Origin: an uncultured Bacilli bacterium | GTDB taxonomy: Bacteria > Bacillota_I > Bacilli_A > RF39 > UBA660 | NCBI GenBank assembly: GCA_947625715.1 | Contig: CANQPR010000001.1 | Coordinates: 1-33,781 of the forward strand | DNA: 33,781 bases | Reading direction: 5' to 3' | Part shown: positions 2-20,873 of the stretch, piece by piece | Numbering within the stretch: the first letter of the stretch is position 1 | Layout: each line of letters starts with the position of its first letter | Position numbers and translations under genes: made by a program | The notes under the pieces: model-generated | Databases searched by the model: none | What the model was told of the DNA's origin: nothing | Seen by the model: only the letters and a program-made list of their open reading frames with translations

Positions 2-751
2 CAAAGTCATATGATGAAGAATACCGAATGGGGAGCAGTAGCATATTTACAACATAGTATATATGGAAGTAGACAAAAAGTAAGAATCAATAATAATCAA
101 AGTTATCTAACAGGCTATGCTTCTATATATGAACCAACAATTGGATATTCTGGAACAAATGAAAGTTGTACTTCAAATAAAGATGCTTGTAATGAATATT
201 GTACATCAGCTAAAGGTGCAAATGGAACATGTAATACAGAGTATTTTGATACATCAAGTGTAAAAGCAAGTACAACAAATAATTACACAGGAATATTTGA
301 TATGGCAGGAGGAGCCTGGGAATACATGATGTCAGGAATGGATGATGGAAAAGGACAGTTATCATCAGGAAATAATAATGCGGCTAATTCAGGGTTTAAT
401 GGAAATTTAACAGGTGAATCAGGAACAATAACAGGTGGTATAGCTTTACCAACCGAACCAAAATGGTATGATAAATATGCTTATGGAACAAGTAATATTG
501 AATATAAAAGAGGTATCTTAGGTGATGCTACAAAAGAAATGGGACCATTTCAAACAATTAGATATATTAGTAACAATAGAAATGTTAGTAGTTGGTATAG
601 TAATGCCGGTTGGGTTGTCTACCATGTAGTTCCGTGGGTCCTTCGTGGTGCCACTCAAGCGGACGGTCTTGAGGCAGGAGTCTTTTCCTTCGCTTACTAT
701 GACGGCTTTGCACACAGTAATGACAGCTTCCGTCTTGTTTTAGCTTTCTAG
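2..751 (+). CDS. C-terminal part (5' end lies outside the window) of a secreted/surface protein with a divergent FGE-sulfatase / C-type-lectin-like fold
   Basis: The frame is open from the window edge to TAG at 749-751. GIFDMAGGAWEY and PWVLRG...SFRLVL resemble the GxYDMxGNVWEW and RVxRGG...GFRxV signatures of FGE-sulfatase/CLec domains. Recognised from motifs only. Confidence 0.6.
   Translation, partial: QSHMMKNTEWGAVAYLQHSIYGSRQKVRINNNQSYLTGYASIYEPTIGYSGTNESCTSNKDACNEYCTSAKGANGTCNTEYFDTSSVKASTTNNYTGIFDMAGGAWEYMMSGMDDGKGQLSSGNNNAANSGFNGNLTGESGTITGGIALPTEPKWYDKYAYGTSNIEYKRGILGDATKEMGPFQTIRYISNNRNVSSWYSNAGWVVYHVVPWVLRGATQADGLEAGVFSFAYYDGFAHSNDSFRLVLAF
600..751 (+). other. Adenine-depleted, GC-rich terminal patch of the CDS; candidate DGR variable region
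   Basis: Hand count for 601-750 gives 24 A (16%) and 75 G+C (50%). The preceding 451-600 has 65 A (43%) and 43 G+C (29%). Codons are mostly NNY/NNG (gtc tac cat ccg gtc ctt cgt ggt gcc act gcg gac ggc). Confidence 0.4.
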
Positions 752-765
752 TTAATCGAAAAGTC

Positions 766-845
766 AAGTGAACAATTTTTTAATATTTAGCAAAATTGTT
801 CAGTTAAGTGAACAAAAATGTTGACATGTGCAAAATTGTTCACTA
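766..845. repeat. Two tandem 40-bp units, each an inverted repeat built on GTGAACAA ... TTGTTCA(C); probable operator array
   Basis: Unit 1 (766-805) is aagtgaacaattttttaatatttagcaaaattgttcagtt. Unit 2 (806-845) is aagtgaacaaaaatgttgacatgtgcaaaattgttcacta. Unit 1 has 11-bp perfect arms TGAACAATTTT/AAAATTGTTCA at 769-779 and 792-802. Unit 2 has 8-bp arms at 808-815 and 836-843. Confidence 0.7.
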
Positions 846-849
846 TAAT
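821..849 (+). promoter_or_regulatory. Consensus sigma-A type promoter for the AAA ATPase gene
   Basis: TTGACA (821-826), a 17-nt spacer, then TATAAT (844-849). The right arm of repeat unit 2 fills the spacer. Confidence 0.6.
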
Positions 850-3073: not shown

Positions 3074-4459
3074 ATGAAATTAAGTCAATTTAAAGAGAAA
3101 AAGAATAGTAAAAAAATAATAATTGTTGCTGTAGCTATCATTTTTTTAATAGGTGGAATGATTTTAGAAAAAACATTTGCTAATTTTAAGATGCAAAAAT
3201 CATTCAAAGTGATGGAGGGTAATTTTATCTATGAAGGAAGTGGGGATATAATATTTGCCTTTTATAAAGATAATAATCAAAAAGTTACAAATATTCCTAC
3301 AATAGAAGAAGGATATGTATATGAAAGAAGTGAATGTAGCAATAACGCATCCATAGAATGGGATAGTAAAAAGCAATCACCTATAGTAAATAATTTAAAA
3401 ATAAGTGGAACAAAATGTGATTTATATTTTAAAAAAATAAATTCAAGTAGCACAACTGTATCAAGTGACTATAATGCTTTAGCTGATTTAATTGATACTA
3501 AAAGAGGTCAATTAGCGTATGATTTAACACCTGACCATAACTTAAGATTTGTAGGAAAAAATCCTGATAACTATGTAAAATTTAACAATGAAACTTGGCG
3601 AATTATTGGAGTCATGAATAACATCGAAGATGAAAAAGGGGTAATTGGAAGTCACCTAAAAATAATCAGAGATAGTATAGGGAATTATAGTTGGGATTCA
3701 TCAGAAAGTAGTGTAAATGGAGGTTATGGAGTAAATGAGTGGAGTGAAGCTGACATACAAAAAGTATTAAATGAGAATTATTATAAAAAAGAAGCAGGAG
3801 GGACATGTTACAATGGTTATAAAAATACAGTAGCGTCATGTCCAAAATGGGAAAATATTGGTTTAAATGATGAAGCAAGAGGAATGGTAAGTAAAATAAA
3901 ATGGAATACTGGTGCATTTTATAGTGAAGATATATATGCGAATTCTTCAACTTATAATTCTGTTTTAGTATATCAAAGTGAGAGAAGTGATTATGTAGGT
4001 CAAAGTGAATGTACTTCTCCAACTGATTGTAATGATAAAGTAAAAAGGAATACGACTTGGACAGGTTATGTAGGATTACCTTATGTAAGTGATATAACAT
4101 TAGCAACTTCTGGTTCTCTTTATACGTCACCTAATGCTGTTTCTGCATGTTTCGGTTTGCCGTTTAGAGATTGGGCTCGTTCGCTTAGCCTTTCTTGGGG
4201 CACATTAAGTTGTTATAGTAATGATTGGTTGTTAAATAGCAGTGATACAAGCAATTGGACGATAACACCTAGTAAAGATTATGACTATGAAGGACATCCA
4301 TATTCTTTAGGTGTTATATTTTATTATGCCGAAAGTGATATTATAATACTTTCAGATGTAACATATAGTAGTGGAATTAGGCCTGCTGTGTATTTAAATT
4401 CTAATGTTAAAGTATCTGGTGAGGGAACAAAGTCTAGTCCATATATATTATCAGTTTAA
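3074..4459 (+). CDS. Secreted or membrane-anchored surface protein of unknown family
   Basis: N-terminal hydrophobic anchor KIIIVAVAIIFLIGGMILE, a Cys/Trp-rich ectodomain, and a C-terminal GIRPAVYLNSNVKVSGEGTKSSPYILS motif of the kind seen in Firmicutes surface proteins. The GGAGG lies in a hairpin loop upstream. Confidence 0.8.
   Translation: MKLSQFKEKKNSKKIIIVAVAIIFLIGGMILEKTFANFKMQKSFKVMEGNFIYEGSGDIIFAFYKDNNQKVTNIPTIEEGYVYERSECSNNASIEWDSKKQSPIVNNLKISGTKCDLYFKKINSSSTTVSSDYNALADLIDTKRGQLAYDLTPDHNLRFVGKNPDNYVKFNNETWRIIGVMNNIEDEKGVIGSHLKIIRDSIGNYSWDSSESSVNGGYGVNEWSEADIQKVLNENYYKKEAGGTCYNGYKNTVASCPKWENIGLNDEARGMVSKIKWNTGAFYSEDIYANSSTYNSVLVYQSERSDYVGQSECTSPTDCNDKVKRNTTWTGYVGLPYVSDITLATSGSLYTSPNAVSACFGLPFRDWARSLSLSWGTLSCYSNDWLLNSSDTSNWTITPSKDYDYEGHPYSLGVIFYYAESDIIILSDVTYSSGIRPAVYLNSNVKVSGEGTKSSPYILSV
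4128..4205 (+). other. Second adenine-depleted, GC-rich patch inside a surface protein gene
   Basis: Hand count for 4131-4200 gives 7 A (10%) and 34 G+C (49%). Codons rare for this genome occur here (ccg, tcg, cgt, ggc). Encodes SPNAVSACFGLPFRDWARSLSLSWGT. Confidence 0.3.
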
Positions 4460-5237: not shown

Positions 5238-5552
5238 ATGTCAAAAGAAAAATTGCGGATCAACTTAAAAGCATTTGATGCCAAAATATTAGATTTAGCA
5301 GCAAGTAAAATTGTTGAAACCGTTAAAAGATTAGGAGGCACTGTTAAAGGACCTGTTCCTCTTCCTACTGAAATTGAAAGAGTTACAGTTTTAAGAGCAG
5401 TTCATAAATATAAAGACTCTCGTGAACAATTTGAAACAAGAACCCACAAGAGATTAATCGATATATTAAATCCTAGTAAAGAATTAATTGAATCTTTAAC
5501 CCGTTTGGATCTTCCAAGTGGTGTTGATATTAAAATTAAAACAGAAAAATAA
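5238..5552 (+). CDS. rpsJ: 30S ribosomal protein S10
   Basis: RINLKAFD...GPVPLPTE...HKRLIDI signature, AGGAGG RBS, and first gene in the canonical operon order. Confidence 0.97.
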
Positions 5553-5569
5553 AAAGAAAGGACAATGTT

Positions 5570-6346
5570 ATGAAAAAAGGAATCTTAGGACGCAAAGTTG
5601 GAATGACACAAGTATTTACTAAAGATGGTAAATTAATTCCTGTAACTGTTGTATCAGTTTTACCTAATACCGTAATGCAAGTTAAAACAGTTGAAAAAGA
5701 TGGTTATAGTGCTATTCAACTTGGCGTAGTAGACAAAAAAGAAAAAAATGCTAGTCGTGCAAGTGTTGGACACGCCAAAAAAGCTAACACCACTCCTAAG
5801 CGCTTCTTAAAAGAAATAAGAAATGTTACTGAAACTTATTCAGTTGGAGATACGCTTAAGGCTGATATATTTAAAGTAGGAGAAATAGTTGATGTAACAG
5901 GAACTAGCAAAGGAAAAGGATTTGCTGGTACTATTAAAAGACATGGTCAAAGTCGTGGACCTATGGCTCATGGATCTCATTATCATCGTGGCCCAGGTTC
6001 ATTAGGAACTATGTTACCAAAAAGAGTATTAAAAGGGAAAAACTTACCTGGACATATGGGAGTTGAAACTGTAACTATTCAAAATCTTGAAATTATTGAA
6101 GTAAATACAGCTGATAACTACCTATTAGTAAGCGGTAATATTCCAGGTGCTAAAGATAGCTTAGTATTAATTAAAAGTGCAATAAAAAATCAAAGAAAAG
6201 AAAACCCTAAAGAAATATTAAGTTATGAACAAGAAACTGTTATTGATGAACAAGTAGATATAACAGGAGAACAACAAGATAAAAAAGAAGAACAAATAAA
6301 AGAAGAAGAACCTACACCAGCATCTAATGATGCCGAACAACAATAG
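5570..6346 (+). CDS. rplC: 50S ribosomal protein L3 with an acidic C-terminal extension of about 50 aa
   Basis: [13 protein letters not shown] and [12 protein letters not shown] motifs, plus synteny. Confidence 0.96.
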
Positions 6347-7271: not shown

Positions 7272-8102
7272 ATGGCAATCAGAAAATACAAGCCAACGAC
7301 TAATGGACGCCGTGGTATGTCAACCCTACAAAATGAAGAAATTACAACTAAGACTCCTACAAAATCTTTATTAAAGAAAAAAACAAAAAGTGGTGGACAT
7401 AATAATCAAGGAAAAATAACCGTTCGTCATATTGGGGGCGGAGCAAAAAGAAAATATCGTGTTATTGATTTTAAACGTAATAAATTTGGTATATCTGGTA
7501 AAGTAGCGTCAATTGAATATGATCCTAATCGTAATGCCAATATTGCTCTAATCAATTATCTTGATGGTGAAAAACGTTATATCATTGCTCCTAAAGGGTT
7601 AAAAGTGGGCATGATTATTGAAAATGGACCTGAATCAGATATAAAAGTTGGTAATGCTCTACCACTAGAAAATATTCCTGTTGGTACAGTTATTCACAAT
7701 ATTGAATTAAATCCTAAAGCTGGAGCAAGTTTATGTCGTAGTGCTGGAACTTCTGCTCAAATCTTAGGACGTGATGGCAAATATGTATTAGTTCGTTTAC
7801 AATCAGGCGAAACAAGAAAAATTCTTGGCAGTTGTATGGCAACTATAGGGGTTGTAGGTAACGAAGATTATGAATTAGTAAATCTTGGTAAAGCAGGTCG
7901 TAAAAGACATATGGGTATTCGTCCAACTAACCGTGGATCAGTTATGAACCCTAATGACCATCCACATGGTGGTGGTGAAGGACGTGCTCCAGTTGGTCGT
8001 AAAAGTCCAATGACACCATGGGGAAAACCTGCACTTGGATATAAAACTAGAAAAAATAAGAAAGCTTCTGACAAACTTATTGTTAGTCGTAGAAAGAAAT
8101 AG
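7272..8102 (+). CDS. rplB: 50S ribosomal protein L2
   Basis: [11 protein letters not shown] and [13 protein letters not shown] motifs. Confidence 0.97.
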
Positions 8103-10280: not shown

Positions 10281-10649
10281 ATGGTAATGCAAGAATCAAG
10301 ACTTAAAGTAGCCGATAATACTGGTGCTCGTGAAGTATTAGTAATTCGTTGCTTAGGTGGAAGTAAAAGAAAAACAGCCAATATAGGTGATGTCGTTGTT
10401 TGCACAGTAAAAAAAGCTATTCCAAATGGAACATTAAAAGCCGGTAAAGTAGTTAAAGCTGTTATAGTAAGAAGCGTTGAAGGTGTAAGAAGAGCTGATG
10501 GTAGTTACATTAAATTTGATGATAATGCCTGCGTAATAATTAAAGATGATAAAACACCAGTGGGAACACGTGTACTAGGACCAGTTGCTAGAGAATTAAG
10601 AGAAAAAGATTTTATGAAAATTGTTTCTTTAGCACCTGAGGTATTATAG
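10281..10649 (+). CDS. rplN: 50S ribosomal protein L14
   Basis: [17 protein letters not shown] motif. An alternative ATG at 10287 is possible. Confidence 0.96.
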
Positions 10650-10660
10650 GAGGTTTTAAA

Positions 10661-10927
10661 GTGAAGATAAAAGTAAATGATAATGTATTAATATTAGCTG
10701 GTAAAGACAAAGGTAAAACTGGCAAAGTTACTAAAACTTTACGCAAAAAAGACCTCGTGATAGTAGAAGGAATTAACATTGTAAAAAAACATCAAAAGCC
10801 AAACAATGCTAATGAAAATGGTGGAATTTTTGATATCGAAGCACCAATTCATGTTTCAAATGTCAAAAAAATTGAACCAGAAAAAACTAAAACAGCCAAA
10901 ACGACAAAGAAAGTAAAGAAAGATTAA
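10661..10927 (+). CDS. rplX: 50S ribosomal protein L24
   Basis: GTG start after GGAGG, KOW motif [13 protein letters not shown]. Confidence 0.94.
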
Positions 10928-10937
10928 GGTGGGAAAT

Positions 10938-11477
10938 ATGAGTACATACAAAGAATTATATAATAAGGAAATAATTCCTGCATTAATGAAAGAATTTAAC
11001 TACAAAACGGTAATGCAAGTTCCAAAATTAGAAAAAATTGTTATTAACATAGGTGTCGGTGAAGGACACACAGACGATAAATATATTGAAGCTGCCCTTA
11101 AGGAATTAGAAACAATAACAGGTCAAAAAGCTGTTGTTACCAAAGCTCATAAATCAATTGCGGGCTTTAAAATAAGAGAAGGTCAAAGTATTGGTGTAAA
11201 AACAACTTTACGTAGCGAAAAAATGTATATATTTATGGAAAAATTAATTCGCATTGCTCTTCCTCGAGTTAGAGATTTTCGTGGTATTAGTAAAAATGCT
11301 TTCGATGGACATGGAAATTATACTTTAGGTATTAAAGAACAATTAATTTTCCCTGAAATTGAATACGATAACGTATTAAAAGTTCGTGGTATGGATATAG
11401 TATTCGTTACTACAGCTAATACAAACGAAGAAGCTAAGGCATTACTTGCACACTTTAAAATGCCTTTCAAAAGATAG
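10938..11477 (+). CDS. rplE: 50S ribosomal protein L5
   Basis: [12 protein letters not shown] and RDFRGIS motifs. ATG at 10938 follows AAGGTGGG. The ORF track starts at a GTG at 10929 that lies inside the RBS. Confidence 0.95.
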
Positions 11478-11486
11478 GAGGACACT

Positions 11487-11672
11487 ATGGCAAGAACTAG
11501 TTTAAAAGTTAAACAATCTCGCAAACCAAAGTTTAGCACTCGTGCTTATACTCGTTGTGAAAGATGTGGAAGACCTCATGGTGTTCTACGAAAATACCAT
11601 TTATGCCGTATTTGCTTCAGAGAATTAGCTAATAAAGGCGAAATTCCTGGCGTAAAGAAAGCTAGTTGGTAG
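11487..11672 (+). CDS. rpsN: 30S ribosomal protein S14, zinc-binding type Z (61 aa)
   Basis: [25 protein letters not shown], a CxxC...CxxC pattern. Confidence 0.96.
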
Positions 11673-19205: not shown

Positions 19206-20873
19206 ATGAAAGAAAATAAAATTTTTGAAACCAAAGTTATTAACAATTGTATTGAACAATTAAATCAATGTAAAAAAAATGTTACCAATAATCCATCCAT
19301 TACTTACATAATAGATAATTTAATTGATATTTTATCTAATAAATTAGATACACAACCATTTTTAGTTTTAGAAATAGCTTCATCATTATTATCTAAAATA
19401 CAACTTTCACCAATGCAAAGAGGTTTAATATTATCTAAAATACTTCAATATAATACTAAAGTAATTGAAAGTAAGCCTTACTCTATATTAGATTATCCCA
19501 TTTATTACAATGCTAATATGCATATGTCATTTTCTAAATTAAAAAAAGAAGTCGATGAAATAGCGACTAACTTAAAAAGCAACTTATCAAAGCCTTTAAC
19601 TAATGACCAAAAATCTTTATATAAATTAATCATTAATTCAGAACAAAATCGTTTAAACGTAATTTCTTTTTATAAAATTATTAAACAAAGCTATAAAAAT
19701 CTTAATGATTATACTATTAATATTATCATTGGTGATGCTCTTATAAATAAACTAACCGAATATGATTGTGAATGTTTAAGAATATATTTAAATACCATTA
19801 AAGAAAATAAAAACTATCCACTTAAAATGGCTGAAGAACAAAGATTTAATACCCTTTTAATTGCCTTATTTGACCAAGATTTTCAAACTTACAGTAATAA
19901 TTTAGTAAGCTTAAAAGCTAAATTTTATGATTTATTAATTGATTATATTGAAAGTTATGAAATAGAAGAAAAAGAACAACTTGATAAAGATAAACTATGG
20001 CAAAGTATTATCAAAATAAATTTTGATTTTCTTGATACTAAACCATATTCATGTTCTTTATTATATGAAAATGAACCAAATTATACATTTAAACAAATAA
20101 GAAAAGCCCTTAAAACCATTGCATCAAGAAATACTGAAAGTGAAAAAAAATTAAAAGATGTTATCATAAAAGAAGAACAATACCGTCTTTTAAACCAACA
20201 AACTTTTAAAGAAATAAAAAATTTATACTATAATTTAACTATTGAAAATATAGATAAAATAATTGATTTATTAAAAACTAAAATTACAACTAATGAAAAA
20301 GCATTAAAAGAAATAAAAACAATGCTTATCAATCAAATGCTTACAGAGCAAAAAATAAAAGAAAATAGAGAAGTAAAAAAAGAAAAAAATGAAAATCCTC
20401 TTGATTTAACTGGCTTAAATTTAGAATTAAAACCTTTAAAACTTGGTTATAGCTTATCTCAATTAAAAGAATATCGTTTATCCTTAGAACATTTAAAAAC
20501 AAAAGTTTTAAATAATGAACCAATTAGTATAGCCCAATATCAACAAGCCCTTTTCTATTTACAAATCCTTGATGAAAACGAAATATCTAAGTTGGAAAAA
20601 GAATACTACTTAAGAAAATTATTTAATAGCTTAATAATTAACCCTGAAGCTTATGAATTTTTGTATCATAAAGGAAAATATTTAGTATTAGTTAATTTAG
20701 ATGTATATCCAATATTAGAAGAAATAGATATCTATAATGAATTAATAAAAGAAGGTAACCAAGAAGAACAACAAGAAGCCTTAGTTTTATTAAAGGAAAA
20801 ATATCACCAATTATTTAATACTATTTGTGATAATTATGCCTATGAATTTTCTTTAATCCGTGAAAAAAAGTAG
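19206..20873 (+). CDS. Hypothetical K/E/N-rich helical protein with an internal duplication
   Basis: Long ORF with GGGGGA RBS-like sequence upstream. No recognisable catalytic motif. The KPYS...EQxRL...F..IK..Y.NL module occurs twice. Confidence 0.75.
   Translation: MKENKIFETKVINNCIEQLNQCKKNVTNNPSITYIIDNLIDILSNKLDTQPFLVLEIASSLLSKIQLSPMQRGLILSKILQYNTKVIESKPYSILDYPIYYNANMHMSFSKLKKEVDEIATNLKSNLSKPLTNDQKSLYKLIINSEQNRLNVISFYKIIKQSYKNLNDYTINIIIGDALINKLTEYDCECLRIYLNTIKENKNYPLKMAEEQRFNTLLIALFDQDFQTYSNNLVSLKAKFYDLLIDYIESYEIEEKEQLDKDKLWQSIIKINFDFLDTKPYSCSLLYENEPNYTFKQIRKALKTIASRNTESEKKLKDVIIKEEQYRLLNQQTFKEIKNLYYNLTIENIDKIIDLLKTKITTNEKALKEIKTMLINQMLTEQKIKENREVKKEKNENPLDLTGLNLELKPLKLGYSLSQLKEYRLSLEHLKTKVLNNEPISIAQYQQALFYLQILDENEISKLEKEYYLRKLFNSLIINPEAYEFLYHKGKYLVLVNLDVYPILEEIDIYNELIKEGNQEEQQEALVLLKEKYHQLFNTICDNYAYEFSLIREKK

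Follow-up and report, generated by a model that had tools for sequence, protein, structure and literature searches.

A putative variable repeat of a diversity-generating retroelement at the 3' end of a surface-protein gene from an uncultured Bacilli bacterium

A 33,781-nt stretch of DNA from an uncultured Bacilli bacterium (assembly GCA_947625715.1, contig CANQPR010000001.1, positions 1 to 33,781; hereafter the window) opens within a surface-protein gene in which the last ~150 nt before the stop codon abruptly lose adenine and gain G+C. This locus raises the question of whether the patch is the variable repeat (VR) of a diversity-generating retroelement (DGR), as an initial annotation of the window had suggested from the letters alone, when neither a template repeat (TR) nor a reverse transcriptase (RT) is in view. 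We conclude, with a probability of roughly three in four, that nt ~605-748 are the VR of a DGR target that is either non-adjacent to its retroelement or an orphan. This reading draws on the base composition of the patch, on its homology to verified DGR targets, on the predicted fold, and on a close relative in which divergence is restricted to the VR. The type of system is a known one; the window locus adds a member to it, and the family to which this member belongs is large and unannotated.

In the mechanism that we favor, a TR located elsewhere in the genome, or since lost, would be transcribed, and a DGR RT acting with bAvd (and, in this lineage, with a MutS_I-like accessory protein) would copy the transcript while misincorporating opposite template adenines; the resulting cDNA would then replace the VR. 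Scaffold residues would remain on adenine-free codons (i.e., TGG, CCG, CGT, GGT, GTC, TTC, and CTT), AAY-type template codons would become NNY, and the coding strand alone would be stripped of adenines, which would produce an abrupt drop of A to 16% and rise of GC to 50% in a genome of 28% GC.

Composition and predicted fold of the C-terminal patch

Base counts across the boundary reproduced exactly the hand counts given in the initial annotation, and the translation quoted there for the patch is correct. While nt 451-600 contain 65 A (43.3%) at a GC content of 28.7%, nt 601-750 contain 24 A (16.0%) and 75 G+C (50.0%). When all 150-nt segments of the 33,781 nt were scanned (mean GC 27.9%, sd 6.0%), the highest GC content of any segment (51.3%) was found at start position 588 and the lowest A content (14.7%) at start position 604. 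Across the boundary, T climbs from 26% to 34% as A drops (AT skew -0.36), and the depletion is therefore specific to one strand and to adenine. The patch comprises the final 48 codons of the gene, i.e., the C-terminus of the protein, and it ends at the stop codon as had been claimed, with GC back to ~25% immediately 3' of nt 749-751.

To separate nucleotide composition from amino acid composition, the 48 residues encoded by nt 605-748 were resampled with synonymous codons drawn according to the window's own codon usage. The patch contains 21 A as compared to 30.2 +/- 2.8 expected (P ~5e-4), 75 G+C as compared to 57.9 +/- 2.5 expected (P < 5e-5), and 6 third-position A as compared to 14.7 +/- 2.6 expected (P ~3e-4). 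Within a comparison set of 1,937 windows of 48 codons, taken from 39 open reading frames (ORFs), the patch has the highest z-score for synonymous GC (6.3, with a maximum of 3.85 elsewhere) and the lowest z-score for A (-3.26), yet a stretch at ~nt 7450 reaches an A z-score of -3.21. After correction for amino acids, only the GC excess sets the patch apart from all other windows, as its A deficit is extreme but nearly equaled elsewhere.

These data bear directly on an explanation that needs no retroelement at all, in which a ligand-binding scaffold rich in Gly, Trp, Phe, Val, Ala, and Arg, together with a local codon preference, would account for the patch. Amino acid content does explain much of the raw deficit, as 30 A are expected in the patch versus ~60 in upstream blocks of equal length, and the near-equal A z-score at ~nt 7450 points the same way. 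By contrast, the synonymous GC z-score is far above any other in the window, Arg is encoded by CGT (twice) and Leu by CTT (three times) in a window that mostly uses AGA and TTA, and the compositional shift starts and stops at the module boundaries of a verified TR/VR pair (see below); this explanation would also leave unexplained the VR-only divergence of two paralogs that are otherwise 97% identical. We thus consider it very unlikely. The compositional skew of the patch is real and non-random and goes beyond what the amino acids require, and the patch combines a sharp-edged depletion of adenine on the coding strand with scaffold residues on adenine-free codons.

The 5' end of the gene lies outside the window, and the frame is open from nt 2. 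A protein search with the truncated product identified 178 homologs at E <= 0.001, the best of which is 59% identical; nearly all of these homologs have neither a name nor a Pfam domain. The Pfam FGE-sulfatase match of the window protein itself is weak (E 1.5e-3, below cut-off, residues 69-131; FGE, formylglycine-generating enzyme). Alignment of the homologs revealed a C-terminal scaffold, SWYxDxAWxVxxxxPWxxRGGxxxxGxxAGxFxFxxxxGxxxxxxSFRLVLA, with hypervariable positions interspersed, and full-length relatives (loci L021, L026, and L083) encode proteins of 550-670 aa with an N-terminal membrane anchor. A structural model of the truncated window protein was poor (predicted local distance difference test score [pLDDT] of 50). 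An AlphaFold2 model of a 60%-identical homolog (P0004), built from 101 sequences, reached a pLDDT of 93.7 and a predicted template modeling score of 0.92. The top PDB match of this model is the variable protein TaqVP of Thermus aquaticus (5VF4; E 5e-8, probability 1.0), followed by formylglycine-generating enzymes, EgtB, TvpA, and Mtd; a sequence-profile search of PDB returned non-significant matches only, i.e., to PvdO and, second-best, TaqVP. The window gene thus very likely encodes a membrane-anchored surface protein in which a C-terminal domain with a predicted FGE/C-type-lectin fold carries the variable residues, and it is in such a fold, mostly at the C-terminus, that the VRs of DGR targets are located.

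Retroelements and variable repeats in related Bacilli

A member of the same family is accompanied by a complete DGR on a 237-kb contig of a mouse-gut Bacilli metagenome-assembled genome (MAG; locus L083). The gene order at this locus is target, TR (11468-11600), MutS_I-like gene (MutS_I, E 7e-10), bAvd (E 9e-19), and RT (RVT_1, E 6.5e-17). When the VR (10595-10696) was compared with the TR (11470-11571), nine mismatches were found, all nine of them at TR adenines. The window VR and the L083 TR have equal lengths and identical fixed residues, and the high-entropy columns of the family broadly coincide with the adenine-containing codons of this TR. The L083 VR also holds an N run (10697-10706) that bridges two VR versions; when compared with the TR, one of these is adenine-clean, and the other has 16 non-A mismatches. 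The run may reflect heterogeneity of the VR in the population or a scaffolding artefact.

The compositional footprint is shared by the family, which comprises at least 579 loci in species-representative genomes; among the matches listed, the closest loci are in rabbit-gut MAGs labeled "uncultured Bacilli", with at least eight copies per MAG. In all 74 copies for which the last 135 nt were compared with the preceding 150 nt, the module is A-poorer than its own upstream sequence (median A, 19% versus 39%; third-position A, 17% versus 41%). With an A fraction of 0.148, the window VR is the 17th lowest of the 74. VRs with direct evidence for a DGR range from 0.09 to 0.19 and unmatched remote paralogs in DGR-bearing genomes from 0.23 to 0.35. 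VRs differ at scaffold synonymous sites both among paralogs within one MAG and among the closest relatives in ENA and therefore cannot all derive from one current TR, and a single TR common to all paralogs was ruled out on this basis. Copies of the family may stand in tandem, with six copies in 12 kb at L017 (1-12257) and four at L023 (6000-13000), and contigs of the family frequently end within these genes. At one locus (L021, 1-1250), an RT lies directly upstream of a family paralog whose module is unusually A-rich (29% A); this is a group II intron RT with a maturase-like C-terminal region (YADD motif, identified by eye), and it was rejected as a DGR RT. With regard to a phage origin, tblastn of the family against 50,697 phage records yielded 0 matches, and a literature search found no relevant report linking DGRs to RF39 or Tenericutes among the papers listed.

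Divergence restricted to the VR was found in two paralogs of a single rabbit-gut MAG (GCA_947626535.1; L003, 768-1139, and L014, 1540-1911) whose proteins are 55-60% identical to the window protein. These paralogs are 97% identical over the 150 nt upstream of the module and differ at 27 positions within the 111-nt module (14, 10, and 3 at codon positions 1, 2, and 3, respectively), which accounts for 27 of the 36 mismatches in their final 350 nt. They are identical again over the last 28 nt and 22 nt beyond the stop codon, including a GGGG-TTTA-CCCC hairpin, and unrelated thereafter. A content is 37% at variable columns and 8% at identical columns. The mismatch block (-139 to -29 from the stop codon) agrees with the boundaries of the window VR. 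Both VRs have a GC content of 60%. No RT was found within 10 kb of either paralog; a VR-only change without a nearby RT makes the action of a non-adjacent DGR plausible in this clade.

A search for RT homologs yielded 5,396 matches. The Avd-RT module is present at four additional loci, L026, L027, L089, and L090, the last of which is in a rabbit-gut MAG. The MutS_I-like gene is present in the first three and was not found in L090. A target gene stands beside Avd and RT in L026, L027, and L090; at L089, with its MutS_I-like, Avd, and RT genes, a target was not seen within the stretch fetched. The VR/TR relations in L090, L026, and L027 are not adenine-clean.

Several of these loci also contain additional copies of the module. 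In L083, an array of ~31 units (~125 nt each, at ~200-nt spacing) extends downstream of the RT from 13907 to the end of the locus at 20695. The units share 58-86% identity with the TR, from which they differ at all four bases, and contain 7-22% A. They lie outside long ORFs, and the sequence on their 3' side (TTTTCGCG-n-TTACTATGA) is that which flanks the TR, not the VR; the units are therefore TR-like copies rather than additional targets. To our knowledge, no described DGR has tens of template-like units. L026 (7518-8218) and L027 (205-661) have 2-3 TR/VR-like cassettes in repeat units of ~310 nt, upstream of the cluster of target, MutS-like (MSL), Avd, and RT genes, and no adenine-clean TR was found in the fetched parts of either locus. 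In L027, the expressed VR (2420-2566) has 97% identity to one cassette (206-348), with 2 of the 4 mismatches at A, and just 75% to the second cassette. This suggests either exchange between cassette and VR or templating from a copy that was already A-poor.

Such cassettes are relevant to the possibility that the patch is a mosaic segment, brought in by recombination, through either horizontal transfer from a GC-richer donor or gene conversion from silent cassettes, with no adenine mutagenesis involved. Promoterless arrays of module cassettes do exist in relatives (~31 units in L083, 2-3 in L026 and L027), and the 97%-identical cassette of L027 indicates that exchange may occur in the family. 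The window, however, has no cassette, and cassettes were found only in loci that also have a DGR RT. A GC-rich donor should deplete A and T alike, whereas T climbs in the patch. The initial annotation had reasoned that a GC-rich sequence conserved among orthologs at the nucleotide level would point to such a segment; the patch is not common to orthologs or paralogs, as no other VR exceeds 65% identity to that of the window. A mosaic origin is thus unlikely.

Among the closest characterized systems is the DGR of Treponema denticola with its variable protein TvpA (PDB 2Y3C). As in TvpA, the VR of the window would form the C-terminal part of a surface protein with an FGE-subtype C-type-lectin fold, although the match of TvpA to the family model is local only (E 1.2). 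In Treponema, one DGR serves up to seven non-adjacent or remote targets, some more than 100 kb away (PMC5758913). Every remote VR there matches the TR with A-to-N differences, whereas no TR was found here, and the paralogs are far more numerous here (at least eight per MAG, and in tandem arrays). TaqVP likewise has an FGE-type C-type-lectin fold with a C-terminal variable surface; however, sequence identity to it is just 15-17% (TM ~0.44), the organism and habitat are unrelated, and TaqVP adjoins its RT and TR. The Mtd/Brt/Avd system of Bordetella phage BPP-1 shares the C-terminal VR in a C-type-lectin fold and the scaffold on adenine-free codons, and its adenine-specific mutagenesis and its set of Avd and RT have a counterpart in the relatives of the window. 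Unlike the window, BPP-1 has a GC-rich initiation of mutagenic homing (IMH) sequence and a short GC-rich hairpin just past the VR, and it is phage-borne with an adjacent TR, while the window family is chromosomal and stands beside an apparent S10 ribosomal operon. MSL accessory genes with avd are known in cellular DGRs of surface-displayed proteins (PMC5758913), and the combination of MutS_I-like gene, bAvd, and RT in L083, L026, L027, and L089 resembles MSL-containing DGRs such as that of Legionella pneumophila (LdtA). The Legionella target adjoins its DGR, while the window is without these genes.

Origin of the putative variable repeat

Searches for a template and an RT provided the first of several results that weigh against a VR written by a DGR: a TR-like copy, an RT, and Avd are all absent from the 33.8-kb window. 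This absence, which had been reported in the initial annotation, was confirmed by repeat, pattern, and tblastn searches. A TR would be expected to have ~70-95% identity to its VR, with differences almost exclusively at template adenines. A repeat finder, short-word blastn, an ungapped adenine-tolerant scan, and an IUPAC pattern all found the VR itself as the sole match in the window, and tblastn of the L083 RT, Avd, and MSL proteins against the window gave 0 matches. Two TR patterns, one of 75 nt (each non-A base allowed as such or as A, scaffold codons fixed) and one of 119 nt (codon-aware, third positions free), also had 0 matches in viral, genome, and metagenome contigs. The VR itself is absent from these three collections, which therefore do not include the source genome, and the pattern search is uninformative on the rest of that genome. 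The adenine-tolerant pattern had 0 matches in 91 fetched loci, and a 28-mer of the window gene was not found in the Joint Genome Institute (JGI) metagenomes. The TR of L090 was rejected as a template of the window VR both by eye and with the adenine-tolerant pattern. The only other contig with the neighboring ATPase gene (L001, 3.2 kb) is identical to the window and begins within the target gene; it carries the sole other copy of the window locus, with an identical VR.

Further points on the same side come from composition, from the sequence 3' of the VR, and from relatives. The A deficit by itself is not a unique outlier once amino acids are corrected for. Neither a short GC-rich hairpin nor a GC-rich IMH follows the window VR, and nt 745-775 contain no folding element; VRs of relatives have hairpins with 4-9-bp stems and 4-nt loops at or just past the stop codon, and these stems are GC-rich at L026 and at L003/L014 and of mixed composition at L083. 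As only about one third of DGRs have a short inverted repeat after the VR (PMC5758913), this absence does not exclude a DGR target. In L090, the VR (674-819) differs from the adjacent AAC-rich TR (896-1041) at 27 non-A and 20 A positions, including many third-position C-to-T differences, and was therefore not made from the current TR. In the genome that carries L083, the TR and the cassettes were rejected as templates of two remote paralogs, L042 and L045, which do not match them (59-64% identity, no adenine bias); the A content of these paralogs is intermediate (23-25%). Finally, the VR is invariant or nearly so in five clusters at 90% identity (P0014, P0024, P0025, P0029, and P0049) whose strains differ outside the VR at several to 20 positions, and P0002 is identical across four samples. 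Within the P0049 cluster, three alleles (Y/N/T) were observed at a single hypervariable codon. As several VRs of relatives are static across strains, ongoing diversification is not to be assumed, and most VRs of the family look frozen, rather than continuously diversified, in the strains compared.

Much of this evidence would fit a fossil or orphan VR, in which an ancestral or since departed mobile DGR wrote the module, which then became fixed while paralogs duplicated, leaving no TR or RT today and a footprint in slow decay. Such a history could explain the five static clusters and the unchanged P0002, the decoupling of the L090 VR from its adjacent TR, the remote paralogs that are unrelated to the TR of L083, and the lack of both a hairpin and a GC-rich IMH 3' of the window VR; it would also fit the result that no DGR RT was found within ~10 kb at ~35 target loci in the four closest MAGs. 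The absence of an RT is not demonstrable from MAGs and short contigs, however, and at least one rabbit-gut MAG of the group does have a DGR RT. In addition, the window VR falls among the VRs with direct evidence for a DGR in its A content, its synonymous sites are far from an AT-rich equilibrium, contrary to long decay, and in a close relative, L003/L014 have changed recently within the VR, with no RT in their vicinity. We consider a fossil VR a tentative possibility that deserves to be taken seriously.

The preferred reading is a VR of a non-adjacent or orphan DGR target. The claim that the C-terminus of an FGE/C-type-lectin-type protein carries a DGR-type VR is supported by the L083 pair, by 74 of 74 modules, by L003/L014, and by the TaqVP match; the part of this claim that did not find support is the retroelement itself, as no TR or RT was located. 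We infer that the window copy was written by retrohoming and that the TR and RT would be either non-adjacent (upstream of the window, or at a distance of more than 33 kb in the downstream direction) or gone. Canonical relatives have their TR, Avd, and RT on the downstream side of the target, and if the DGR of the window stood immediately before position 1, its arrangement would be non-canonical. The window VR may still be serviced or may be quiescent or orphaned, and we regard these two states as about equally likely; signs of recent writing are the A fraction of the window VR, which sits with those of DGR-evidenced VRs, and the distance of its synonymous sites from the AT-rich norm.

A further possibility, which we regard as doubtful, is a hard-wired repertoire with the window VR as one of its elements, in which a DGR of these gut Bacilli with reduced genomes would write binding tips only rarely and these would then be fixed and multiplied as dozens of strain-constant paralogs. 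The arrays of tens of diverged, A-poor cassettes at the DGR loci could here act as alternative templates or as recombination donors, and a VR would therefore not need to match any single canonical TR.

Downstream region and implications for the family

The features of the window that are discussed here are listed in Table 1. Downstream of the target lie an AAA_14/DUF4143 ATPase gene, a sigma factor gene, and a second surface-protein gene, followed further downstream by the apparent start of an S10 ribosomal-protein operon (judged by eye from ORF translations at 5238-6346). The downstream region of the window is thus chromosomal core, unlike the TR-Avd-RT layout of relatives.

Table 1. Coordinates of features in the 33,781-nt window.
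Feature	Position (nt)	Strand	Details	Evidence
FGE/C-type-lectin-fold surface-protein gene, 3' part	2-751	+	249 codons plus stop	ORF, homologs, model of a homolog
GIFDMAGGAWE motif of FGE-type fold	290-322	+	family-invariant G97, D100, G103, G104, E107	invariant alignment columns
Putative DGR VR	605-748	+	48 codons; 14.6% A, 52% GC	composition, codon resampling, L083 TR/VR
Hypervariable core of putative VR	~611-724	+		family comparison
Conserved 3' end of putative VR, SFRLVLAF	725-748	+	at the place expected for an IMH-like end	
Stop codon TAG, end of A-poor patch	749-751	+		sequence, ORF
Inverted repeat 1	766-805		arms 769-779 / 792-802 (GTGAACAATTT / AAATTGTTCAG-type), 12-nt loop	DNA fold
Inverted repeat 2	807-849	+	arms 807-815 / 836-844, motif GTGAACAA/TTGTTCAC as in repeat 1	
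Promoter	TTGACA 821-826, TATAAT 844-849	+	17-nt spacer; serves AAA_14/DUF4143 ATPase gene, 867-2060	
Second surface-protein gene	3074-4459		461 aa	

Two inverted repeats separate the target from the ATPase gene. The first, which the initial annotation had likened to the hairpin that follows DGR variable regions, does exist (11-bp arms, AT-rich stem, -9.6 kcal/mol, z = -2.9). The second, which shares its arm motif, has the -35 box of a perfect sigma-70 promoter between its arms and borders on the -10 box. As the repeat arms are duplicated around the promoter of the next gene, the first repeat looks like an operator rather than a DGR hairpin. Judging from this arrangement, the two palindromes are probably an operator pair that binds a protein and is no part of the VR machinery, and the promoter of the AAA_14/DUF4143 gene is probably controlled by a repressor.

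The first 120 residues of the second surface protein (anchor plus first domain) are 36% identical to the N-terminus of the full-length DGR target of L026 (E 3e-21). The C-terminal part of the protein differs and matches no Pfam domain. The second A-poorest patch of the window (~4100-4240) lies in this gene and was considered as another candidate; it is no outlier after amino acid correction (z-scores of -2.5 for A and 2.6 for GC).

What is most unusual lies at the level of the family and outside the window, namely huge sets of paralogs with mostly static VRs and arrays of TR-like cassettes. If the DGR reading is true, composition alone could reveal DGR targets that are non-adjacent or orphaned when the genome is AT-rich; standard DGR finders, which are based on the RT and neighboring repeats, are stated to miss such targets (PMC8144416). 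The window locus could then be annotated as encoding a DGR-type variable protein, and the ligand-binding tips of a large family of surface proteins of uncultured gut Bacilli, most of which are without a Pfam domain, would have been shaped by retroelement mutagenesis.

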